A DNA stretch of 64,000 nucleotides from Candidatus Eiseniibacteriota bacterium (GTDB lineage: Bacteria; Eisenbacteria; RBG-16-71-46; CAZAMP01). The stretch spans positions 288,001 through 352,000 of the forward strand of contig OZ245046.1 of the NCBI GenBank assembly GCA_965224245.1. Direction: 5' to 3'. The notes beneath the pieces are model-generated. The model saw only the letters and a list, made by a program, of their open reading frames with translations. It was not told the DNA's origin and searched no databases. The translations under genes were made by a program, and so were the position numbers. Positions 12,951 through 27,133 of this stretch are shown piece after piece (position 1 is the stretch's first letter; the number at the start of each line of letters is the position of its first letter).

Positions 12951-13238
12951 GGATCCTCCAGCGTCGGGGTCTTGCGGATGGAATGGACGGGCCAGTCGAC
13001 GAGGGAGTCTAGCATCCGGGCGTGCGCTTCCTAAAAGGCCCGATCGCCGCCGTCATCCAGACGGCTGCGGGCCGAGGATCGGGTCTCGCCGCCCGGGCGG
13101 ACGTCGTCGGTCTCCGCTCACGTTATGATCACGCGGCGGCCAGACCCGGAATCGACCGGCGCGGGCTGCGAAGCTCCCGGGGAGGACACATGCACGGATC
13201 GTCCGCTCGATGAGCACTGCCGGCCGGGAGTCGCGTCG

Positions 13239-13796
13239 ATGAGCGACATCACGCGCCTCTTGAGAGCCGTCGAGCGCGGGGAGGCCGGGTCCGCCGACGA
13301 GCTCATGCGGGTCGTCTACGCCGAGCTCCGGCGGATCGCCGCGCACAAGATGGCCCGCGAGCAGCCCGGGCAGACCCTCCAGACCACCGCTCTCGTTCAC
13401 GAGGCCTGGCTCCGACTGGGTGGCGACCACTCGTCTCGCTGGGAGAACCGGGCCCACTTCTTCGCCGCCGCGGCCGAGGCGATGCGTCGCATCCTCGTCG
13501 ACAACGCACGTCGCAAGAGACGACTCAAGCACGGTGGCGACCTCGAGCGCGTGGAGCTCGACCACGCGCAGCTCGCGGTCCCGCTCCGGGACGACGACGT
13601 GCTGGCCGTGGACGAGGCACTCGACCTCCTCGAACAAAACGATCCCCGCGCGGCCCGGATGATCCATCTCTGCTTCTTCCTCGGGATGACCCAGCAGGAA
13701 GCGGCGGACACGATGGGAATCTCGGTGAGCACGGCCGAACGAACATGGGCCTATGCCCGTGCGTGGCTGTACCGGCGGATCCGGGACGACCGCTAG
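13239..13796 (+). CDS. ECF sigma factor (STK-associated, TIGR02999-like)
   Basis: MSDITRLL...YAELRRIA...LQTTALVHEAWLRL...HFFAAAAEAMRRILVD; GGGAG RBS. Confidence 0.92.
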   Translation: MSDITRLLRAVERGEAGSADELMRVVYAELRRIAAHKMAREQPGQTLQTTALVHEAWLRLGGDHSSRWENRAHFFAAAAEAMRRILVDNARRKRRLKHGGDLERVELDHAQLAVPLRDDDVLAVDEALDLLEQNDPRAARMIHLCFFLGMTQQEAADTMGISVSTAERTWAYARAWLYRRIRDDR

Positions 13797-13823
13797 CCGG
13801 ATCTCGACGCGCCGCGACTTTTG

Positions 13824-13853
13824 GTGAGGGAAGATGTGCCGTCACGGCGCATG
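13824..13853 (+). promoter_or_regulatory. Candidate ECF promoter GTGAG-N19-CGCATG
   Basis: Lies between the ECF and kinase genes; identical elements and spacing recur at 62640-62669. Confidence 0.45.
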
Positions 13854-13894
13854 CAGAGGTGCGAACAGGTTTCTCTGGTGGAAGGAGCACCTCG

Positions 13895-16800
13895 ATGGAC
13901 GAGGACCCGCGCATCAAGGACATCTTCCTGCGCGCACGCGAGCTGGCGTCGACGCGGGAGCGCGAGGCGTACCTCAACGAGATCTGTGCCGGCGACGGTG
14001 AGCTGCGGGAGCAGGTCGAGTCGTTGCTTCGCTCCGAGGATGAAGCCGGGACGTTTCTTCAGCTCACCGAGCGAGAGCACGCCGGGTCGGTCCTCGGTGA
14101 GGGCCCCGGCACCGTCGTCGGGCGCTACAAGCTCCTCGAGGAGATCGGCCGCGGCGGGTTCGGCGTCGTGTACATGGCCGAGCAGCTCGAACCGGTACGG
14201 CGGAAGGTGGCGCTCAAGGTCATCAAGGCCGGGATGGACACGCGCGAGGTGATCGCACGCTTCGAGGCGGAGCGCCAGGCACTCGCCCTGATGGATCACC
14301 CCAACATCGCCCGTGTGCTGGACGCCGGAGCCACCGAGGCGGGGCGTCCCTACTTCGTCATGGAGCTGGTCCGCGGGCTGCCCGTGACCGAGTTCTGCGA
14401 CCGGGAATCGCTCTCCTACCGCGAGCGTCTGGAGATCTTCGTCGCGATCTGCCACGCGGTGCAACACGCCCACCAGAAGGGTGTCATCCACCGCGACCTG
14501 AAGCCGAGCAACGTGCTCGTCAGCGTGCACGACGGCCGGCCGGTTCCCAAGGTGATCGACTTCGGCGTGGCCAAGGCGCTCGGACAGAGCCTCACCGAGC
14601 GGACGCTGTTCACCGGGTTCCACGACATGATCGGCACGCCCGCCTACATGAGTCCGGAGCAGGCCCAGCTCAGCGGCCAGGACGTCGACACGCGCAGCGA
14701 CGTGTACTCGCTCGGGATCCTGCTCTACGAGCTTCTGGTCGGGACGACGCCGTTCGATCGGGACACGCTGGGCAAGGCCGCGCTCGACGAGATCCGGCGG
14801 ATGATCCGGGAGACGGATCCGCCAACGCCCTCCCAGCGACTCCGGACGCTCGGAGGAAAGCTGCCGGAGATCGCACGATTTCGCGCCACCGACGCCGCGA
14901 CTCTGGCCCGGACGGTCCGCGGCGAGCTGGACTGGATCGTGATGAAGGCGCTGGAGAAGGACCGACGCCGCCGGTACGAGACGTCCGATGCGCTCGCCCA
15001 GGATGTCGGCCGCTACCTGAACGACCAGCCGGTCGTCGCGGCGGCGCCCGGTGCCGGCTACGTCATGCGGAAGTTCGTGCGGCGACACCGCGTCGGGATC
15101 GTCACCGCCGGTGCGTTTCTGACGTTGCTCGTCGCGGGCACGGTCGTGAGCACCTGGCAGGCTATTCGTGCGTCCCGGGCGGAGCAGGCCCAGCGCGTCC
15201 TGCGCGAGCGGGCCGACGAGGCCCGGGACGTCGAGACACGACTTCGCAGGCTGGCTGACGCCCGCCAGCGAATCGCGCGCGCGAGCCTTCTCGTGCGCGA
15301 GGGTGACCTCGAGGCAGCCGACACGCTCGTCGGATCGATCGACTCGCTGATGGTCGACCTGGATCCCGTCGAGGCCGGGGAGATCCACACCGCGATCGGG
15401 GCCTGGCGCGCGCGCAACGCGGAGTGGTCGCGCGCGGCGACGAGCTTCGGACGGGTCATCGAGGCCGATCCGGGGAGCTTCGATGCGCGTCACCGGCTGG
15501 CACCGGTGTACGTCCAGGTCGGGGACTCGCTCCGCTACGACGCCCTGCGCACGGAGATGCTGGACCGGTTCGGCGACACGCACGATCCGTTCGTGGCGGC
15601 GAGCCTGGTGAAGGACTGTCTCATCAGACCGTGGACGCCCGCGGCGATGGACACCCTCGCGCACCTGGCCGACACGGTGCTGGATCGGGAACCGGACGTG
15701 CGGCAGCGCCGACGTCTCCTCCTCGCCCGGGGACTCCTCGACTACCGGCGCGGCCGGTTCACGGCCGCCGAAGCAGCCCTGCGCGAGGTGGCCGAGGGGG
15801 GCGAGTGGGAGCGCAACCTGGACGAGGACGTTCAGGCGTACATGCTTCTGGCCATGTCCCGTCTGAAGCTCGGTCGCGCCTCCGAGGCACGCGCCACGCT
15901 CGTCAATGGTCTGGGGATCGCACGCGACGCTCTCCCGGCGGATGAGACGGCGCTCGTGGGCTGGCGGGACTGGAACGAGTGGATCCTGTCGACGGCCTTG
16001 ATGGACGAGGCCACGCGACTCGTCGAGGGATCCACCTCGTCGAGCGCGGTGACCGATTCGCCGCCGGCTTCCGGTCGATCGCCGGAGCCCGCCGCTGGCC
16101 ATGCCGATCGCGCGGCCCTCATGCTGTCCCGGGGCGTCGAGGCGTCGCTCACCATCTTTCCCGCGCGGCTCGGCGGTCAGGCGTTCGGACGGGTGTCGGG
16201 TGTGATCGGCACGCTGCTGGAGCAGATGGGACTCCGACACATCGCGCTCGAGGAGACCGTGTTCGACCCCGGTCCCGAGACGGGGATGCCTCACGTGATC
16301 GAGGCGTTCGGTCGGTTCGTCGTCGAGCACCCGATCGCGAGCGAGTACGCGCTGTACGCCGAGTACAACGGCACGCGTGAGACAGGTGTCGTCGAGCTGC
16401 GTGCCGTCGTGGTCGATCGCGACGGAAACCTGGTATGGCAGGACCGTCTGGGCCGTGAGGACGCGGCGTTCAGCGAGATCCCCGGGCCCGACCCCATGAG
16501 CGTGACCGTGCTCCTCGTGGAGCGACTGTGTCCATCGTTCGGCCTGAGCGAGGAGACCCAGCGGGCCGCGGCTCCCGGCGAGATGGCGAGGCGATCGCGC
16601 GAGAGCAGCGGACTGCCTCCGGACGACGAGCTCGCGCTACTGGACGCGAGACGTGAGGCACTTCGGCGCGCCGGCGGAGACGCCACGCTGGCCGTCTACT
16701 CACCCCGGGTTCAGGGAGCCGCCGATGCGGGGGAGGCGGCGCGACTCGCGCGGCAAATCGCGGACCGAGGGCTGTGTCGCGCGTCGGCGGTGGCGACCCC

Positions 16801-17110
16801 GCTCTCGATCGAGGCCTCGCAGAAGGGACCGAACGAGCTCCGGATCCTGTGGGATCTGGCCCGCGCCTTCCGCGAGCACGTCCGCGCGCATCCACCCGAT
16901 GCGGACTATGCCCTCTACGCCGACTTCGTCTTCGACCCCGGACGCTGGGAGCAGGGGTACGTTCACTTCGTGGTCTGCGATCGGTCGGGGGAGTGGGTCG
17001 TCGTGGACCTGCAGAACTCCGAGCACGCGGACTACCAGAAGGTGAAGCCGACGTCGGAGGACGCGTGCTCGAGGCTCCTCGTCGAGCGACTCCGGCAGGT
17101 GCTTCTGTGA
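13895..17110 (+). CDS. Membrane Ser/Thr kinase with TPRs and an internally duplicated C-terminal domain
   Basis: GRGGFGVVY, HRDLKPSN, DFG, GTPAYMSPE; TM segment GIVTAGAFLTLLVAGTVVSTW; AAGGAG RBS. Confidence 0.92.
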   Translation: MDEDPRIKDIFLRARELASTREREAYLNEICAGDGELREQVESLLRSEDEAGTFLQLTEREHAGSVLGEGPGTVVGRYKLLEEIGRGGFGVVYMAEQLEPVRRKVALKVIKAGMDTREVIARFEAERQALALMDHPNIARVLDAGATEAGRPYFVMELVRGLPVTEFCDRESLSYRERLEIFVAICHAVQHAHQKGVIHRDLKPSNVLVSVHDGRPVPKVIDFGVAKALGQSLTERTLFTGFHDMIGTPAYMSPEQAQLSGQDVDTRSDVYSLGILLYELLVGTTPFDRDTLGKAALDEIRRMIRETDPPTPSQRLRTLGGKLPEIARFRATDAATLARTVRGELDWIVMKALEKDRRRRYETSDALAQDVGRYLNDQPVVAAAPGAGYVMRKFVRRHRVGIVTAGAFLTLLVAGTVVSTWQAIRASRAEQAQRVLRERADEARDVETRLRRLADARQRIARASLLVREGDLEAADTLVGSIDSLMVDLDPVEAGEIHTAIGAWRARNAEWSRAATSFGRVIEADPGSFDARHRLAPVYVQVGDSLRYDALRTEMLDRFGDTHDPFVAASLVKDCLIRPWTPAAMDTLAHLADTVLDREPDVRQRRRLLLARGLLDYRRGRFTAAEAALREVAEGGEWERNLDEDVQAYMLLAMSRLKLGRASEARATLVNGLGIARDALPADETALVGWRDWNEWILSTALMDEATRLVEGSTSSSAVTDSPPASGRSPEPAAGHADRAALMLSRGVEASLTIFPARLGGQAFGRVSGVIGTLLEQMGLRHIALEETVFDPGPETGMPHVIEAFGRFVVEHPIASEYALYAEYNGTRETGVVELRAVVVDRDGNLVWQDRLGREDAAFSEIPGPDPMSVTVLLVERLCPSFGLSEETQRAAAPGEMARRSRESSGLPPDDELALLDARREALRRAGGDATLAVYSPRVQGAADAGEAARLARQIADRGLCRASAVATPLSIEASQKGPNELRILWDLARAFREHVRAHPPDADYALYADFVFDPGRWEQGYVHFVVCDRSGEWVVVDLQNSEHADYQKVKPTSEDACSRLLVERLRQVLL

Positions 17111-19413: not shown

Positions 19414-19528
19414 CAGGTGGGAGCGGTCCGGCGTGCCCGTTGCAGGATCTCGGCGGGTATTACGAACTGATACTCGAACCGATACCCTCGATGCGACCGA
19501 CGTCGTTCCCATCCGAAGGAGCAGTCCG

Positions 19529-20320
19529 ATGACGCAAGACTCGCGTTCTCCCCGGTCCCCCAACGTCGATACCGAGGAGCTTCGCCGGGCCATTCGACAG
19601 GAGTACCAGGAGGTGGCCGACGATCCCGGAAAGGGGTTCCACTTCCACACCGGTCGCGCACTGATCGCGATCGTCGGCTACGAGGATGAGTGGCTCTCCG
19701 GAATCCCCGAATCGGCCATCGAGTCGTTCGCGGGCACCGGCAACCCCTTTGCCTTGGGCGAGCCCGCTGCGGGGGAGAGGGTCGTCGACGTCGGATCGGG
19801 AGGTGGGATCGACTCGCTCATCGCGGCTCGCATGGTGGGCCCGACGGGAGCCGTGGTCGGGATCGACATGACCCCGGAGATGCTCCGGAAGGCGCGCGCC
19901 GCCGCCGAGGAATCGGGGCTGGGCAACGTCGAGTTCCGTGACGCGTACATGGAGGCGCTGCCGGTGCCCGATGGGTGGGCCGACGTCGTGATCTCCAACG
20001 GTGTGCTGAACCTGACGCCCGACAAGGACACCGCCCTCGGTGAGATGTTCCGGGTGCTGCGCCCGGGAGGCCGGCTCCAGATCGCCGACATCCTGGTGGA
20101 TCGTCCGGTTCCGGAGGGCGCGAAGCGGGACATCGACCTCTGGACCGGGTGAATCGCCGGTGCTCTGCTGGAAGCAGAGCTGGAAGCCACCGTCCTCGCC
20201 GCGGGGTTCCGCGACTTCGAGATCACGTGGAAAGCCGAGGTGTTCGCCGGCGCGCCCCAGGCGTCGAGCGCCAGCGCGTTCGGCACCATGGGGATCAACT
20301 TCCGGGCGCGCAAGCCCTGA
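19529..20320 (+). CDS. Arsenite-methyltransferase (ArsM)-like SAM methyltransferase, probable selenoprotein (Sec at TGA 20150-20152)
   Basis: AAGGAG RBS; VDVGSGGG, GIDMTPEML, ISNGVLNL; TGA falls in LWTG-U-IAGAL, the LWxGCIAGAL position of ArsM; frame stays open 55 more codons to GINFRARKP*. Confidence 0.85.
20162..20180 (+). promoter_or_regulatory. Bacterial SECIS-like hairpin
   Basis: GCTCTGCT-GGA-AGCAGAGC, a perfect 8-bp stem with G-containing loop, starting 9 nt after the TGA. Confidence 0.75.
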
Positions 20321-20639
20321 GCCCGGCGATACCCGGTCGCCTCGTCGGCGGCGCGCGGTTGTGATTCCACGTCACCCGGCCCGGCTCTCCGCGTTCGGGA
20401 CGGTGGCGTGCGTTGCGTCGGCGAAACCTCGCGGCGGTCCACGACTTTGATGCCGATGCATCATGGCGTCCCCACGGCCCCGCCCCGAGAATGCTCGGCT
20501 GGACTCCATCATCGTCGAAGACCGATCGCGACCGTTGTGGCCCGGATCCGCGGTCCCCGTGCGCCGGAGTCCCCTGCGCAGGAGCCCGCGCAGACAGCTC
20601 GTCGGCTGGCCACGCTCCAACCCGTTCGGAGGCTTCGTC

Positions 20640-21455
20640 ATGTTGCCAGACATCACCCGCATCCTAGCCAGTGCCGTCGTCGTGGCGGCCATCATCCCGA
20701 CGACGGCCGCAGGGGTCGAACGAACGATCTGGACCAGCCCGCTCGGCGCCATCGTGGGGGACTCCCGCATGGCCGTCGCGCCGGGCATTCCGCTCTCGAG
20801 CATCCGGGTGACGTCGACGACCGCGGGCGATCTGCAGTGGGTGTGCTTCGGGCTGACCGTTCCCGAGGAGGCCCAGATCGTCGGCGTGCGGCTGTGCTAC
20901 GAGCTGGCCGATTCGAGGAGCTTCATCTCCCAGACGCGGATCACGCTGCTCACGACGCCGGACTTCGACCTCGCCGTCTACGACGACCCAACCGACCACA
21001 CCGATCCGGGACCCACGTGCTACTACTCGACTGCCGCGCCGGTGTTCGTCGAGGGGACCTGCACGCTGGAGCTGCGCCTGAACTTCGCGTCTCCGGACCA
21101 CTGGATCGACATCGGCGCGATCGGCATCGTGATCGACGACCCCACGATCGCCGCGCCCGACGTCGCGCTCTCCGAGAGCGGGATGCGGCTCGAGCAGAAC
21201 GTTCCGAACCCGTTCAATCCGCAGACGTCGATCCGCTACGCCGTCACCGCGGAGGACTGGATTCGCGTGGACATCCACGACGTTCAGGGGCGCCTCGTCC
21301 GCACGCTGGTCGATGACCTGCAGCAGCCCGCGCAGTACCACGTATCGTGGGACGGCACGGATGATGGTGGGAGTCCCCTGGCATCCGGTACGTACTACTA
21401 CACGGTACGGATCGGGAACGAGCAGGCCTCGCGCAAGATGGTGATGCTGAAGTAG
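20640..21455 (+). CDS. Secreted protein with unknown N-terminal domain and FlgD-Ig tail
   Basis: GGAGG RBS, signal peptide; QNVPNPFNPQT...WDGTDDGG...SGTYYY tail. Confidence 0.85.
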   Translation: MLPDITRILASAVVVAAIIPTTAAGVERTIWTSPLGAIVGDSRMAVAPGIPLSSIRVTSTTAGDLQWVCFGLTVPEEAQIVGVRLCYELADSRSFISQTRITLLTTPDFDLAVYDDPTDHTDPGPTCYYSTAAPVFVEGTCTLELRLNFASPDHWIDIGAIGIVIDDPTIAAPDVALSESGMRLEQNVPNPFNPQTSIRYAVTAEDWIRVDIHDVQGRLVRTLVDDLQQPAQYHVSWDGTDDGGSPLASGTYYYTVRIGNEQASRKMVMLK

Positions 21456-21570: not shown

Positions 21571-23511
21571 TCAGCGAATGATCACGAGGCGTCCCGTGTG
21601 AACCTCGGACGGCGTCCGAAGCCTGTAGAAGTAAATGCCGCCCGGCACGGCGTTGCCGCTCTCGTCACGGCCGTCCCACTCGGCGTGATGCAGGCCCGCG
21701 GCCGTGAAGCCGCTGGCCAGCGAGCGGATCTCCCGTCCGTTCACGTCGAAGACGCCCAGCTCGACCGAGGCGCCGGTCTCCAGCCAGAATCCGATGTGCG
21801 TGTCGGTGTGGAACGGGTTCGGGTCCACGTTCACGGCGGTGGACCGTGCGAGGCGTGATCCGTCGCAGCCCGCCGTGCAGCTGTTGCCATCCTCGTCACA
21901 GGTCTGCTCGTTCGCCCCGGCATCGTACGTGAGGCCGGCACCCGAGACGCCGGTCACCGTGAACGCCCAGCAGTAGCTGCTCGCATTGCGGACGCGATCC
22001 GAGTCCAGCGTCACCTGGCCGCTTCCGTCGGTCACGCCGCTCTCGGTGCTGGACGTGGTTCCGGCGTAGGTACCCGTGACCGTTGCGTTCGCCTGCGGTC
22101 CATGGGTCGACGTGTGGACGGAGACCGTCGTGCGCGCTCGCGTCCACGGGCCCTGCTGCACGATCGAGAGCGACACCGCGCCCACGTGAACCGCGTCCGC
22201 CGGCGGGCAGGCATCGGTCGACGTCGTCGCCGTGTTCGAGTAGGCGGACGTTCCGGCGCAGTTGGACGCCGACACCCGGTACGAGTAGCTCGTGTCGCAG
22301 GTGAGACCGGAGTCGTGGTAGCTCGTCGTGTTCGCGCCGACCGTCGCGATCTGGGTGAAGCCGCCGCCGGAGTCGCGTTCGATGGCGAACTGGTCCTCGT
22401 CGGAGCTGGCGTCGGTCCAGCTCAGGTCGATCTCGGTGTCACTGGCGGCCGTCGCGGAGAGACCGGTCGGTGCGGTGGGCGGACCCGTCGCCTCACAGCC
22501 GCTCAGCCAGCCCGGCGTGGCGGCGGCGGACCAGCAGTGCATGCGACTGACCTGCTGACTGGTGAACGTGTCGTAGCACGAGTCAGGGGCGTAGCCCATG
22601 TAGTTCTCGGGCTGCGTGGCTCCCCACGCCGTTCCCTGACAGTCGCTGCCCCCAGGCGGCGAGCAGTTGTAGTTCGTCGGGGTCGGCGGCGTGTCCGAGC
22701 AGAAGTCCCCGCGCACGTCACCCTCGACACCGGACGCAAACTCGTAGCAGCTGCCGCACGACGTGACCTCGCTGACCCCGTGGTGCGTGTGCCAGAGACC
22801 GAGGCAGTGTCCCATCTCGTGCGCGGCCGTCTTCTGGCCCGCTCCCCAGTACGCCGAGTTCATCCACAGGCCACCCCGGTTCGTCAGCGCGTCCGGATCC
22901 CAGGGGAACGTGCCGATACCCAGGAGAACGCCGAACGGGCTCGAGTCCTGGCAGGAAATGAAGATGTTGCAGCTGTTCGCGGGATCTTCCGCGTACTGAT
23001 CCTTCATGGCCAGGATGTCCGCGTACCACGTCGAGTTGTACGGGTGATACTTGGTGATGCAGTGGAAGTCGTTGTCGTTGTGAAAGCGGGTGGCCACGAG
23101 ATTGAAGGAGATGCCGGTGCCCGCGTAGTCCGCGGCGAGCTGAGCCATCCCGGCGTCGACCTCCGCCTGACCGACGCCGCTCGGGCCCTGGCCCGACGAG
23201 CTGTTCATGACGTGCACGATGACGTTGACGGTCTTGGCGGAGGTCGACGTTCCGTCGCGTGTCGCCGGAACGTCGCAGGCGCCTTCGGTGGGGCAGCCAC
23301 TCCCCCGAAACGTGTCGTCGGAGATGCCGACGCGCTCGTAATATAGGTCCGTGGTCGGGCACAGGAAGGGGACGGTCTGTCCCGTCTCCGGATCCACGGC
23401 GGGTTGCTCGGGAATTGCGGTTGCCGATCCCGCCCCCACGAGACAGGCGACAACCCCGACGATCCAGCGACCGAGTCGAAGAGACGAACGCTGACCGGAT
23501 CTGCTACTCAT
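21571..23511 (-). CDS. Secreted M43 (pappalysin/ulilysin-like) metalloprotease with FN3 domain and FlgD-Ig tail
   Basis: HEMGHCLGLWHTH; CSDTPP; ENYMGY...FTSQQVSRM; FN3 (PTAPTGLSATA...WTD); PNPF...GGIYFYRL. Confidence 0.92.
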   Translation of the reverse strand: MSSRSGQRSSLRLGRWIVGVVACLVGAGSATAIPEQPAVDPETGQTVPFLCPTTDLYYERVGISDDTFRGSGCPTEGACDVPATRDGTSTSAKTVNVIVHVMNSSSGQGPSGVGQAEVDAGMAQLAADYAGTGISFNLVATRFHNDNDFHCITKYHPYNSTWYADILAMKDQYAEDPANSCNIFISCQDSSPFGVLLGIGTFPWDPDALTNRGGLWMNSAYWGAGQKTAAHEMGHCLGLWHTHHGVSEVTSCGSCYEFASGVEGDVRGDFCSDTPPTPTNYNCSPPGGSDCQGTAWGATQPENYMGYAPDSCYDTFTSQQVSRMHCWSAAATPGWLSGCEATGPPTAPTGLSATAASDTEIDLSWTDASSDEDQFAIERDSGGGFTQIATVGANTTSYHDSGLTCDTSYSYRVSASNCAGTSAYSNTATTSTDACPPADAVHVGAVSLSIVQQGPWTRARTTVSVHTSTHGPQANATVTGTYAGTTSSTESGVTDGSGQVTLDSDRVRNASSYCWAFTVTGVSGAGLTYDAGANEQTCDEDGNSCTAGCDGSRLARSTAVNVDPNPFHTDTHIGFWLETGASVELGVFDVNGREIRSLASGFTAAGLHHAEWDGRDESGNAVPGGIYFYRLRTPSEVHTGRLVIIR

Positions 23512-23641: not shown

Positions 23642-25078
23642 TCACCGCTCATCCGATCCGGTGCACGTGTGACAGCGGGCGCCGAGCTCGCGGACGACGT
23701 CGACCAGCGCGTCGACGTCCTCGGGCCGGATCCGCCAGCTCGCGATCGCGGGGCGGAGCGCCACCTTCCCGCCCTGCGTCGTAGTCCCCGCGTAGACGCG
23801 TCCGTCGGCCAGCAGCTCCTCGCCGAGTCGGCGATTGAGTGCGTTCAGCCGCTCCTCGGACAGCCCACGCGGGTTGTAGCGGAAGCACACGATGTTGAGC
23901 GGGACCTCGGCCAGACGTTCGAGGTCGGACGCGGCGTCGACGCGGTCGGCCAGCCGCTGTGCGAGGTCGAGATGCGACTCGATGAGGTCGCGATAGCCGC
24001 TCCGGCCGTAGGCGTAAAGCGTGGCCCATACCGCGAGGGAGCGGGCGCGCCGTGAGCTCTCTGGCCCGATCGAACCCATGTTCGGTCCGGCGTCGGCGTC
24101 CGGAAGGTATGCGCCGGAGTAAGTGAACGACCGCTCCATCACGCCTCGGTCTCGTACGAATGCGAAGCCGCAGTCGTATGGCACGTTGAGCCACTTGTGT
24201 CCGTCGACGGTGATCGAGTCGGCGCGTTCCGCGCCCGCCGCGAGATGCGCGGTGCGGGGGCTCACCCGGGCGAAGAGGCCGAACGCGCCGTCGACGTGAA
24301 GCCACGCGCCATGGGTCTCCGCCAGCTCCGCCATCGTGTCGATCGGATCGAAGTCGCCGGCGTTCACCTCGCCCGCGTTGCCGATCAGGATCGCGGGGGC
24401 GCCGCGGAGCCGCTCGAGCTCCGTCCGGAGCGCATCCACGTCGAGCCGTCCCACCGCGTCCCGCGAGAACGTCCGGACGGAGGAGCGTCCCATCCCCAGC
24501 ATCCCGATCGCCTTCCGGGCACTCGCGTGGACGTAGCCGCTGGAGAAGACCGGCGCCTGAGGAAGGCCCTGGAGCCCGTCGGTCCCGATGTCGACCCCGT
24601 GCCGCTCGCCCCACCACTGCCGGGCCGCGGTGAGCCCGACGACGTTCGCCATCGTGGCGCCGGAGACCATGACGCCGGTCATCGACGACGGGAGCCCGAG
24701 GAGGGTCTTCAGCCAGCCGAGACTCAAGAGCTCCAGCGACAGTGCCAGCGGGGAGGAAACCCATGCGTATGCGCATTGATCGAGGGCGGTGGTCAGCCAG
24801 TCGGCGCCGAGCGCCGCCGGCGTGGTCCCGCCGATCACGAAGTGGAAGAACCGAGAGCCCGCCGAGTGGGCCGCGCCGTCGAGCCCGCCCGCCAGGCGCC
24901 GTAGCGCGTTCACGGCGCCGTGTCCGTCCTCCGGGAACGCCTCGTCGAACGCGCGCGCGACCGCCTCGGCATTCGGGGCACGAGCCGCCCTGCCGTCGAC
25001 CCCGGCCAGATACTGCGTGGCCTCGGCGATCGCGTCCGTGATCACGGCCTCGATCTCGGCCCGGCTCGGGCGCACCAT
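23642..25078 (-). CDS. PLP-dependent group II amino-acid decarboxylase
   Basis: WLHVDGAFG, ADSITVDGHKWLNVPYDCG (PLP lysine); GAGGAG RBS before MVRPS. Confidence 0.92.
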   Translation of the reverse strand: MVRPSRAEIEAVITDAIAEATQYLAGVDGRAARAPNAEAVARAFDEAFPEDGHGAVNALRRLAGGLDGAAHSAGSRFFHFVIGGTTPAALGADWLTTALDQCAYAWVSSPLALSLELLSLGWLKTLLGLPSSMTGVMVSGATMANVVGLTAARQWWGERHGVDIGTDGLQGLPQAPVFSSGYVHASARKAIGMLGMGRSSVRTFSRDAVGRLDVDALRTELERLRGAPAILIGNAGEVNAGDFDPIDTMAELAETHGAWLHVDGAFGLFARVSPRTAHLAAGAERADSITVDGHKWLNVPYDCGFAFVRDRGVMERSFTYSGAYLPDADAGPNMGSIGPESSRRARSLAVWATLYAYGRSGYRDLIESHLDLAQRLADRVDAASDLERLAEVPLNIVCFRYNPRGLSEERLNALNRRLGEELLADGRVYAGTTTQGGKVALRPAIASWRIRPEDVDALVDVVRELGARCHTCTGSDER

Positions 25079-25210
25079 GACATCTCCTCGTTCTGGATCG
25101 GACGACGGTGGAGTCGCGGCCCCAGCACGGCTCGCCGACGGCAGCGCGACGCCGGCCGCCGGCCCGCGGGGGCGCTCACGCTTCACGACGTCCGGGGACG
25201 TCCGGTCGAG

Positions 25211-25219
25211 TGATACACT
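25211..25219 (+). promoter_or_regulatory. Extended -10 promoter TG-A-TACACT upstream of cytochrome c gene
   Basis: TGnTAnnnT match in the divergent intergenic region. Confidence 0.4.
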
Positions 25220-25279
25220 GTAGCGAACTTCAGCCAGCAGGGGGATCTCATCGATCGCCGTCTCGTCGTCGCTCTGGTC

Positions 25280-27133
25280 GTGACCGTGGTAGCCGTCGCC
25301 GCCGTGGCCATGATCATGCGGGTTCTGGAGGGTGATGCCGGCGCGGACCTGCCGCCGATCGATCCCGAGGTCATCCCCGCCGACGGGTACGTCGGCTCCG
25401 ACGCCTGCCGCTCCTGCCACGAGCGCGAGCACACGGCCTGGCATGCCTCCTACCACCGGTCGATGACCCAGCTCGCCAGCCCCGCGTCGGTTCTGGCTCC
25501 ATTCGACGGCACCGAGCTCGCACTGGAGGGCGTGACGTGGCGGCTGAGCCGTCGCGGTGACACGTTCTGGGTGAACGGTCGCGAGCGACATCCGGAGACC
25601 GGCGAGATCGTCCAGCTCGAACGGCGCATCGTCATGACGACCGGTTCGCACAACTACCAGATGTACTGGATGGAGTCCGCCGGATCGGGCATGGCGCCGT
25701 TTCCACTGGTGTACCTCCTGTACGACCGCGTGTGGATTCCGCGCAAGTCGCGCTTTCTCGCACCTCCCGCCGAGCGGACGCCGATCGAGACCGGCCGGTG
25801 GAGCGTTCACTGCATCAAGTGCCACGCGACGCACGGTCAGCCCCGCCACGGTCCGCTCGAGGAGACCCGCGTGGCCGAGCTCGGGATCAGCTGCGAGATG
25901 TGCCACGGCCCGGGCCAGGAGCACGTGCGACGGCACGGCTCGCTGTTCCGGCGACTCGGGCTCTCCCGAGACGGGGGGCCGGACTCGACGATCGCGAACC
26001 CCGAACGTCTACCACATGATCGATCCGCCGAGGTCTGCGGCCAGTGTCACAGCATCGAGGTGTTCCTGACCCGCGAGGATGCGTTCGACTGGCAACACGA
26101 GGGGAGCCGATACCGGCCCGGGGATCGGCTCGAGGAGTTCCAGACGATCGTGTCCGGCCGTCTCGAGGAGAACCCGCCGGAGGTCCGCGAGTACCTCGAC
26201 CAGCATCCGATCTTTCGGCTTCAGAACTGCTTCTGGTCCGACGGCGTGCTCCGCGTGACGGGCCGCGAGCTCCACGGTCTGAAGGAGACACCCTGCTACC
26301 AGCGCGGTGAGCTGAGCTGCATCTCGTGTCATCGGCTGCACCGCGCCGACCGGGATGATCGATCACTGGAGGAGTGGGCCGACGATCAGCTGCGCCGGGA
26401 CATGCGCGGGAACGAGGCCTGCACGCAGTGCCACTCGCGGTACCGCGATCCCGGCGTGCTCGCCGCTCACACTCACCATCCACTGGACTCGTCGGGCAGC
26501 GCGTGCCAGAACTGCCACATGCCGTACACGACGTGGGGTCTGCTCCGCGCGATTCGGAGCCACACCGTGGAGTCCCCGAGCGTGCGGACGAGTCTCGAGA
26601 CCGGCCGGCCGAACGCCTGCAACCAGTGTCATCTGGATCGCACGATGCGGTGGGCGGCCGAGACGCTGCACGACTGGTACGGCACCGAGATCCCCGAGAT
26701 GTCCGACGACGAAGGAACCGTGGCCGCCTCGATCCTGTGGGCGCTGTCCGGTGATGCGGTCCAGCGTGCGCTCATGGCATGGAGCATGGGCTGGGAGCCG
26801 GCGCGCGAGGTCTCCGGCGCGCAGTGGATGGTGCCGTTTCTCTGCACGCTCCTCGTGGATCCGTACGATGCGGTTCGCTTCAGCGCCCAGCGCTCGCTCC
26901 GGGGCTACCCCGAGTATCGCGGTCTGACCGCCGACTCGCTGCGCGCGGCGTCGAAGGAGCGACAGTCCGCGATGATGAGCGCCGTTCTCACCGACTGGAG
27001 CAACGGGCTACCGGCGAGCGCGGGCCGGGTCGGCTCACAGCTTCTACTCCTGGCCGACGGTCGGATGAACCTGGAGAAGCTCCGGAGCCTGGCCGCGTTG
27101 CGAAACGACCGCGACCTCGTCCTCTTCGAGTGA
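25280..27133 (+). CDS. Multiheme (8 CxxCH) c-type cytochrome; true start may be upstream
   Basis: CRSCH, CIKCH, CEMCH, CGQCH, CISCH, CTQCH, CQNCH, CNQCH; N-terminal hydrophobic anchor. Confidence 0.9.
   Translation: MTVVAVAAVAMIMRVLEGDAGADLPPIDPEVIPADGYVGSDACRSCHEREHTAWHASYHRSMTQLASPASVLAPFDGTELALEGVTWRLSRRGDTFWVNGRERHPETGEIVQLERRIVMTTGSHNYQMYWMESAGSGMAPFPLVYLLYDRVWIPRKSRFLAPPAERTPIETGRWSVHCIKCHATHGQPRHGPLEETRVAELGISCEMCHGPGQEHVRRHGSLFRRLGLSRDGGPDSTIANPERLPHDRSAEVCGQCHSIEVFLTREDAFDWQHEGSRYRPGDRLEEFQTIVSGRLEENPPEVREYLDQHPIFRLQNCFWSDGVLRVTGRELHGLKETPCYQRGELSCISCHRLHRADRDDRSLEEWADDQLRRDMRGNEACTQCHSRYRDPGVLAAHTHHPLDSSGSACQNCHMPYTTWGLLRAIRSHTVESPSVRTSLETGRPNACNQCHLDRTMRWAAETLHDWYGTEIPEMSDDEGTVAASILWALSGDAVQRALMAWSMGWEPAREVSGAQWMVPFLCTLLVDPYDAVRFSAQRSLRGYPEYRGLTADSLRAASKERQSAMMSAVLTDWSNGLPASAGRVGSQLLLLADGRMNLEKLRSLAALRNDRDLVLFE

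Follow-up and report, generated by a model that had tools for sequence, protein, structure and literature searches.

A mis-annotated selenocysteine methyltransferase of the ArsM fold in Candidatus Eiseniibacteriota that probably acts on something other than arsenite

The gene at 19529..20320 (+ strand) of the window, that is, of the whole 64,000-nucleotide stretch of DNA that was analysed, is a real, mis-annotated selenoprotein gene of an already catalogued kind, and its product is a 263-residue class I SAM-dependent methyltransferase of the ArsM fold with selenocysteine at position 208 and no cysteine. The enzyme probably methylates something other than arsenite, given that the cysteines with which ArsM grips arsenic have been lost and that relatives lie beside sulfur-handling genes. 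A single frame runs from ATG 19529, 7 nt downstream of a Shine-Dalgarno-like AAGGAG read from the sequence (19516..19521, +), to a terminal TGA at 20318-20320, and its sole internal TGA lies at 20150-20152 (+), the point at which the gene-caller record of this gene ends with a 207-residue product (P0002). Read through, the frame encodes LWTG-U-IAGALLEAELEAT...FRARKP with a cysteine count of zero, so that the suggestion of an earlier note, that selenocysteine would be the only chalcogen residue of the protein, follows directly from the reading frame. Promoters and terminators were scanned for at the gene and none was found, and the GC content around it has no anomaly. On comparative grounds it is nearly certain that SelB, acting on a hairpin within the ORF, recodes UGA208 and thereby produces a full-length ArsM-fold methyltransferase whose sole active-site chalcogen is selenocysteine.

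The recoding, which the earlier note had proposed from the sequence of this one gene, is borne out by its relatives. In the 119 best database homologues (the best 120 listed, less the gene's own truncated record), column 208 holds Cys in 113, Trp in three, Tyr in one and Arg in one, and the remaining record ends exactly at LWTG; a protein-database search favours full-length Cys forms, and the three Trp are probably TGA read as Trp. At the best 79 loci in GTDB genomes the same column is TGA in 78 and TGC in one, the 78 coming from nine labelled phyla and five unlabelled records, with two loci in one genome. One row of the 78-locus, alignment, selA and neighbour counts is L074 (genome G073, flagged unpublished), and no conclusion depends on it. 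The in-frame UGA thus aligns with Cys in homologues and alternates with it, and conservation continues downstream: the 55 residues after the Sec (20153..20317, +) contain the motif FxGAPQxSxAxxFGT, and many of their columns are invariant across the 78 TGA loci. It is possible to take the TGA for a true stop, whether as a nonsense mutation or as the natural end of the 207-residue protein that gene callers record, or for a sequencing error. This is extremely improbable: the codon recurs in nine labelled phyla with the frame conserved beyond it, and truncation would remove from the fold the helix (215-224) and two strands (228-236 and 253-261) which the structural model places after the Sec. On these comparative grounds, together with the behaviour of the hairpin described below, the true-stop reading was refuted.

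The hairpin 3' of the UGA, GCTCTGCT-GGA-AGCAGAGC (20162..20180, +), begins 9 nt after the TGA and has an 8-bp stem, with its GGA loop 17 nt after the UGA and a folding energy of -11.7 kcal/mol. It falls within the bSECIS limits as they appear in PMC13188914, namely a loop of 3-9 nt with G in its first two positions, a stem of 4-16 bp, 16-37 nt from UGA to loop and an MFE of at most -7.5. Its z-score is -3.6 on the 19-mer alone, and wider folds are unremarkable (z 0.01, -0.32 and -0.12 in 51-121 nt of context, and z -1.2). Since these wider folds are no better than shuffles, and since a crude filter for TGA plus hairpin gave 14 matches within the window, the hairpin alone is not above chance, which is the one other point in favour of a true stop; its stability was dropped as proof of Sec, and comparative evidence alone counts. 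That evidence agrees with the earlier assignment of the hairpin as a SECIS element. Its eight pairs are paired in 98.9% of cells over 78 distinct rows, against 31-52% in slid controls, and two of them show compensatory changes on both sides. Codons are frozen within it at Ala212 (GCT in 78/78 TGA loci), Ala216 (GCA in 71/73) and Glu217 (GAG in 77/78), in genes whose Ala codons elsewhere are GCT in 10.9% and GCA in 9.4%, and this synonymous freezing is limited to the hairpin, which further argues against a true stop. Of 93 TGA forms, counting the window gene, 92 keep at least seven of the eight pairs; the hairpin decays in the Cys forms, all six of which keep just 4-6.

Three relatives carry other stop codons nearby. 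In the metagenome contigs L143 and L145 the Sec column is TAG, the hairpin is as in their TGA sisters L149 and L150 and the frame continues, so that these may be cases of UAG-encoded Sec, a usage reported for some Actinomycetota. L154 is a TGA form in which an additional TAA follows in frame soon after the hairpin, and it is probably a broken copy.

The genome also holds the machinery whose presence the earlier note had made a test of its proposal: tRNA-Sec (selC), SelA, SelB and SelD were all found above cut-offs. The SelD gene (G000:C1:4218184-4219107) is itself a selenoprotein gene, with an in-frame TGA and a hairpin with a G-rich loop. Among 50 genomes drawn from the 79 loci (49 TGA and one TGC), selA was found in 48 of the 49 TGA genomes. 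This co-occurrence is weak evidence, because the background is high (131/151 and 39/41 genomes, or 87-95%), because the three Cys-form genomes tested have both selA and selB, and because G026 (81% complete) has TGA forms and gave no selA match. As to a misread TGC, TGT or TGG, contigs from three runs of one sample have no differences from the window across the TGA; they are not independent, since the runs may be the source of the assembly.

The fold of the protein is that of ArsM. Its Pfam match is Methyltransf_31 (E 2.6e-31), and an AlphaFold model of the 263 residues (pLDDT 88.9, pTM 0.89) finds its best structural matches in the ArsM structures 4FR0 and 6CX6 (Z 27.1, rmsd 2.1 Å), with CrArsM also matched; the nearest solved folds are all ArsM/AS3MT, which places the protein among the SAM-binding class I enzymes of ArsM type. 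Residues D87, G91 and G93 of VVDVGSGGG (19781..19807, +), which we take from general knowledge of class I methyltransferases to be SAM-binding motif I, are invariant in the 119 best homologues. In the numbering of CmArsM (as it appears in the excerpted text of PMC6138428), T70, G158 and U208 align to C72, C174 and C224, and the C72A structure has A in the T70 column. Thr and Gly therefore stand at the first two ArsM cysteine positions, as the earlier note had read them: Thr70, in FAGTGNP (19736..19738, +), is T in 118/119 best homologues, and Gly158, in ISNGV (20000..20002, +), is G in 119/119. By this alignment Gly158 removes the partner thiol of the arsenic site. In CmArsM the arsenical is held by Cys174 and Cys224, and none of the four cysteines can be spared for As(III) (PMC6138428, in part); the Cys174 and Cys224 equivalents of human AS3MT are both needed for either methylation step (PMC3877260, as excerpted). 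A multi-cysteine As(III) mechanism would thus be unusable here, as had been argued earlier, the equivalents of Cys72 and Cys174 being absent. For a phylogenomic survey, an ArsM was defined as having at least three of four conserved cysteines (44, 72, 174, 224; PMC5552862, in the portion available), and in the window protein only the Cys224 position is filled, by Sec.

Two of the earlier observations on cysteine need to be seen against the relatives. The losses are present, and they are not special to the Sec form: the homologues in which T70 and G158 are so nearly universal are mostly Cys forms, so the losses are a trait of the whole branch. Likewise the window protein is free of cysteine, and complete absence over the matched span is found in only 25 of the 78 TGA relatives (from seven phyla), most others having Cys at non-catalytic columns or in C-terminal tails. 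A locus census (218 loci after removal of six duplicates) divides into the FAGTGNP branch, with 93 TGA and 6 Cys forms (99 loci), other ISNG proteins, with 48 TGA, 4 Cys, 2 TAG and 2 not covered, and canonical ISNC proteins, in which the column is Cys in 63/63; therefore every Sec form in this sample is without the Cys174 partner. In trees, canonical ArsM falls on one side of a branch with SH-aLRT 97 (149 rows, about half of the GTDB TGA loci being left out) and 99 (79 chosen rows), the curated F/YCGVGNP Sec-ArsM group forms a subtree apart from the window's branch (98), and Cys forms are scattered at three or more places among the TGA forms. Unrelated methyltransferases used as outgroups fell inside on very long branches, and because rooting failed in this way, the ISNG proteins may be either a clade or a grade, and the Sec/Cys exchange may have run in either direction. 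A member above 60% identity was found in 2/40 related genomes; this patchy presence among kin, together with near-80% identity across phyla, suggests horizontal spread of the gene.

The window protein scores 235.8 bits against NF008823, below the cut-off of 263, and the same genome has a canonical, cysteine-rich paralogue at C1:5547464-5548270 that scores 369.2. No ACR3 or ArsC lies beside that paralogue (G000:C1:5547464-5548270; L120:7465-8271), and DsrE-like and TusE/DsrC-like small ORFs, assigned to families by eye, lie ~2.3-2.9 kb upstream of it on the other strand. The main alternative to the reading favoured below is that the window enzyme would complement the canonical ArsM as a single-site methyltransferase of arsenic (or of Sb, Bi or Te). 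Either Sec208 would bind a one-ligand DMAs(III) or thio-organoarsenical and complete the trimethyl form, or it would bind As(III) with the help of His38 and His40, in the manner proposed for TtArsM. The two histidines belong to a branch motif, GFHFHTG (19634..19654, +), that lies at about the CmArsM Cys44 position, as judged from the ends of alignment ranges only (the structural alignments start at model 38 = 6CX6 42 and model 37 = 4RSR 44), and they are near-invariant, with H38 in 119/119 and H40 in 118/119 best homologues and both in 78/78 TGA loci. The retained fold and Cys224 position are consistent with such an enzyme, as are the accounts that DMA(III) binds one cysteine (PMC3877260, in part) and that the CmArsM scheme holds DMA(III) by Cys224 alone (PMC6138428, in part), and curated lists call these selenoproteins arsenite methyltransferase. 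TtArsM, reported to be a single-Cys arsenite methyltransferase that relies on two His (bioRxiv 10.1101/2021.07.12.452139, in the text available) though with its Cys at the Cys72 position, keeps arsenic among the possible substrates. A single-site arsenic enzyme is nevertheless unlikely, and it is the genomic context of the branch that speaks against it.

The gene itself stands alone in the window, between an upstream ORF without family assignment and a downstream FlgD-Ig secreted protein. Its wider surroundings (13125-17110, 20463-21455, 21571-23511 and 23642-25936) code for an ECF sigma factor together with a Ser/Thr kinase, for a pair of secreted FlgD-Ig proteins, one of which also bears peptidase M43 and fn3 domains, and for a PLP-dependent decarboxylase; nothing in this set suggests an operon with the methyltransferase. 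The earlier observation that no ars genes are nearby holds for C1:270-370 kb, which covers the window: ArsR, ACR3 and ArsC profiles, built from related loci, had no match there, and neither had those for OsmC, DsrE, rhodanese and SQR, such arsenic and sulfur genes being present elsewhere in the same genome. Recurrent neighbours among relatives are OsmC-like proteins, rhodanese-metallo-beta-lactamases, an ArsR-rhodanese fusion, DsrE (some with in-frame TGA), MFS proteins, SQR-like flavoproteins and TusA, and 15/119 best homologues carry TusA as a C-terminal fusion domain. Rhodanese, TusA, DsrE, persulfide dioxygenase and SQR families are carriers or handlers of sulfane sulfur. By whole-locus profiles, sulfur-type genes occur at 49/99 branch, 22/56 other ISNG and 1/63 canonical loci, ACR3 or ArsC at 2/99, 0/56 and 9/63, and ArsR without rhodanese at 2/99, 1/56 and 26/63; these profiles were built from the same loci and are partly circular, and flank lengths differ between loci. 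Because of this circularity Pfam was run on the nearest same-strand ORFs, 132 of them from 72 loci picked at random out of 98 in the branch and 115 from 62 canonical loci. Of the branch loci, 21/72 were flanked by rhodanese, OsmC, DsrE or TusA, against 0/62 canonical ones, and SBF(ACR3), LMWPc(ArsC) or stand-alone ArsR flanked 0/72 against 10/62, in counts made by hand on automatic ORF picks, many of which had no Pfam match. Loci in all neighbour counts are related by descent and not independent.

These counts bear on single-site arsenic methylation in three ways: first, of the two branch loci with ACR3 or ArsC in their fetched flanks, one (L106) also holds a canonical-type ArsM; second, the Pfam scan found no ars-type flank in the branch; and third, the regulator beside the branch is usually the ArsR-rhodanese fusion and not a stand-alone ArsR. 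Distant single-Cys ISNG relatives lie directly after OsmC on three haloarchaeal plasmids, and one in Chelatococcus follows a sigma/anti-sigma pair; no ars genes were seen in four annotated plasmid regions viewed (of seven matches). Of the 21 closest relatives, those at 74.5% identity or more, only 3 have a sulfur-type neighbour, so that the argument from context rests mainly on relatives at 56-74% identity.

Several features of the relatives' loci deserve mention in their own right. In L067, L070, L072, L087, L088, L099 and L100 the neighbouring DsrE-like gene contains a TGA, in frame within a U-x-x-C motif, and these genes have a hairpin in common; DsrE-like selenoproteins are already catalogued. 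L066 and L076, 10 kb apart on the same contig, are two Sec paralogues in one genome, one of them TusA-fused, and second or partial methyltransferase copies lie near L064 and L132. Among the canonical ArsM loci (L176-L233), 19/63 have an AbrB-like gene that matches the HgcAB-associated HgcC (NF040962). In five genomes (L108:718-4191 (+), L066:3-2888 (+), L240, L241 and L242) a BTAD-AAA-TPR (SARP-like) transcriptional regulator of ~1,150 residues carries TGA in frame at a single column, DxHL-U-L[WCG]EYHLYGD, where the copies in L086, L239 and L243 have Cys; a conserved hairpin follows the TGA and is kept in the Cys copy L243. A search of 201 genomes of the phylum of G065 gave six matches to it, four with TGA, and in L066, L108, L240 and L241 no more than a few kb separate it from the Sec methyltransferase. 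The family is absent from the table rows seen of PMC13188914 and is a candidate for an uncatalogued Sec-containing regulator.

The reading favoured here, with somewhat less than even confidence, is that the window protein is not an As(III) methyltransferase and that it tethers reactive sulfur or selenium on its Sec and methylates it there. In ArsM the methyl acceptor is the atom held on Cys174/Cys224 next to SAM, and replacement of Cys174 by Gly would leave a one-point tether only, suited to monovalent adducts. This remaining tether and the neighbours that handle sulfane sulfur are the grounds for proposing that Sec208 captures S or Se. The residue, which is Cys in some relatives, would accept sulfane S or Se from polysulfide, from a persulfide or from a carrier protein (rhodanese, TusA or DsrE, for example), to give enzyme-Se-S(-) or enzyme-Se-Se(-); attack of this adduct anion on SAM would then yield enzyme-Se-S-CH3. 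Release of methanethiol or methylselenol, and with it the return of the free selenol, would fall to a thiol or to a partner of the OsmC type, and the enzyme's role would be to detoxify excess reactive sulfur or selenium without oxidation. Both the covalent intermediates and what the partners do in this scheme are inferred. To our knowledge, the known H2S and persulfide methyltransferases have not been described with a covalent Cys or Sec tether. Methylation of such substrates is itself known, TPMT acting on HS-, polysulfides and GSS- (PMC13089183, as excerpted) and MddM and MddH on H2S and MeSH (PMC12904073, as excerpted). Against the proposal stand the nearest solved folds, all ArsM/AS3MT, and the report of TtArsM taken with the conserved H38 and H40; OsmC and MFS neighbours, too, are not sulfur-specific. 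For a complex of SAM, a Cys-form methyltransferase and an OsmC dimer, prediction scored 0.01, which speaks neither for nor against a partnership.

A likewise unlikely alternative to sulfur or selenium capture is methylation of an organic thiol or of some other small molecule, in which Sec/Cys208 would serve as transient methyl carrier, base or redox switch and the sulfur genes would be co-regulated neighbours in a general stress island. Loci of the branch often contain further methyltransferases of unrelated kinds as well as cupins and genes of SnoaL-like and polyketide-cyclase-like types; around the closest relatives the neighbouring genes are unrelated, and transposases occur at some of these loci; and Gly158 would be expected to enlarge the pocket. 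However, no biosynthetic cluster recurs among 85 loci, and both the TusA fusions and the Sec-containing DsrE-like neighbours point to transfer of sulfur or selenium. The proposal of tethered sulfur or selenium methylation may be carried further, to the rather doubtful generalization that the catalogued "arsenite methyltransferase" selenoproteins are largely misnamed and are ISNG persulfide/selenide methyltransferases, apart from true ArsM, that capture their substrate on a single Sec or Cys and span at least nine phyla. If so, they would be a hidden route to methanethiol or methylselenium, with distant single-Cys relatives also in haloarchaea, and in some Chloroflexota they may answer to a regulator that is itself a Sec protein. 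No paper assaying members of the branch or linking it to sulfur genes was found in literature searches that covered few subscription journals.

What gives the gene its value is a claim open to test, namely that these selenoproteins are something other than arsenite methyltransferases. The Sec form dominates among genomic relatives (93/99 branch loci) and is mostly invisible in protein databases because gene callers truncate it at residue 207; a search of automatic annotation (Atlas) returned only methyltransferase or arsenite methyltransferase names, and the latter name can inflate arsM counts in metagenomes. Should the branch methylate reactive S or Se, it would be an additional enzyme class in the methanethiol, dimethylsulfide and methylselenium cycles, and a selenoprotein family on record since 2007 would have its first function; should it methylate organoarsenicals, it would be a one-ligand ArsM, a smaller step. 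Natural Cys forms simplify the assay.

In relation to known systems, the selenoprotein itself is not new, since a Sec "arsenite methyltransferase" with the motif UxxG is already catalogued, and the earlier view of a Sec-only enzyme, upheld as to the Sec readthrough, overstated its novelty. Table 1 of PMC13188914, citing Fomenko et al. 2007, lists this family with one Sec (NF008823, representative WP_011987699.1), and the parts available of this 2026 inventory place it under experimentally verified families; other listings are the top-20 table of PMC5029168 (41 proteins, 39 organisms), the GOS survey (8 sequences; PMC2398784, in part) and the 2022 review PMC9312934 (in part). Like the catalogued family, the window protein is an ArsM-like SAM methyltransferase with one Sec in a UxxG motif (U-I-A-G) and a SECIS within the ORF, a comparison made with the family's description and not with the sequence of WP_011987699.1. 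It differs in lying below the NF008823 cut-off, and the loss of the other cysteines and the sulfur-gene context go unmentioned in the available text of PMC13188914, PMC9312934, PMC5029168 and PMC2398784. Because it fails the canonical ArsM test and lies below every curated Sec-ArsM model, it was filed apart from known forms as a variant. Those further models are NF041537 ArsM_AhpD_UU, NF047649 MTase_UXPK_star and NF041536 ArsM_DUF2284_UU (Haft and Tolstoy 2025, as cited in PMC13188914, in part), against which the window protein scores, in that listing order, 245, 219 and 216 bits with cut-offs of 510, 460 and 575. Members above the cut-offs of NF041537 (L208 and L209) and NF047649 (L215), the two models from which members were compared, share the Sec column and have ISNG for ISNC as the window protein does, but they keep Cys in F/YCGVGNP, have a C-terminal extension with a second Sec and form a separate subtree. 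The window protein is not one of these double selenoproteins: its homologues end at ~RARK(P), several of them with TAG or TAA.

With canonical ArsM/AS3MT (CmArsM 4FR0 and 6CX6, CrArsM 5EVJ, human AS3MT 8XT7) the window protein shares the fold, over 214-219 residues at about 33% identity, the SAM motif and the Cys224 position, and it differs in having Thr and Gly for Cys72 and Cys174, no Cys at Cys44, Sec for Cys224 and only rare ars-type neighbours. TtArsM of Thermus thermophilus, compared by description, is reported as a single-Cys enzyme with two proposed His ligands, but its Cys77 is N-terminal, at the Cys72 position by a reading of the alignment in that paper (bioRxiv 10.1101/2021.07.12.452139, in the text available), whereas here the residue is at Cys224. 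No Mdd-type or TPMT-type model was among the top 25 NCBIfam matches of the window protein. The MddM proteins, again by description, are shorter, at 204-210 residues, belong to UbiE/UbiG-type families and are not reported as selenoproteins in the accounts available; MddH, MddM1/2 and TPMT are nevertheless class I SAM methyltransferases that detoxify reactive sulfur, and it is as functional analogues of these that the window enzyme and its branch are tentatively proposed.
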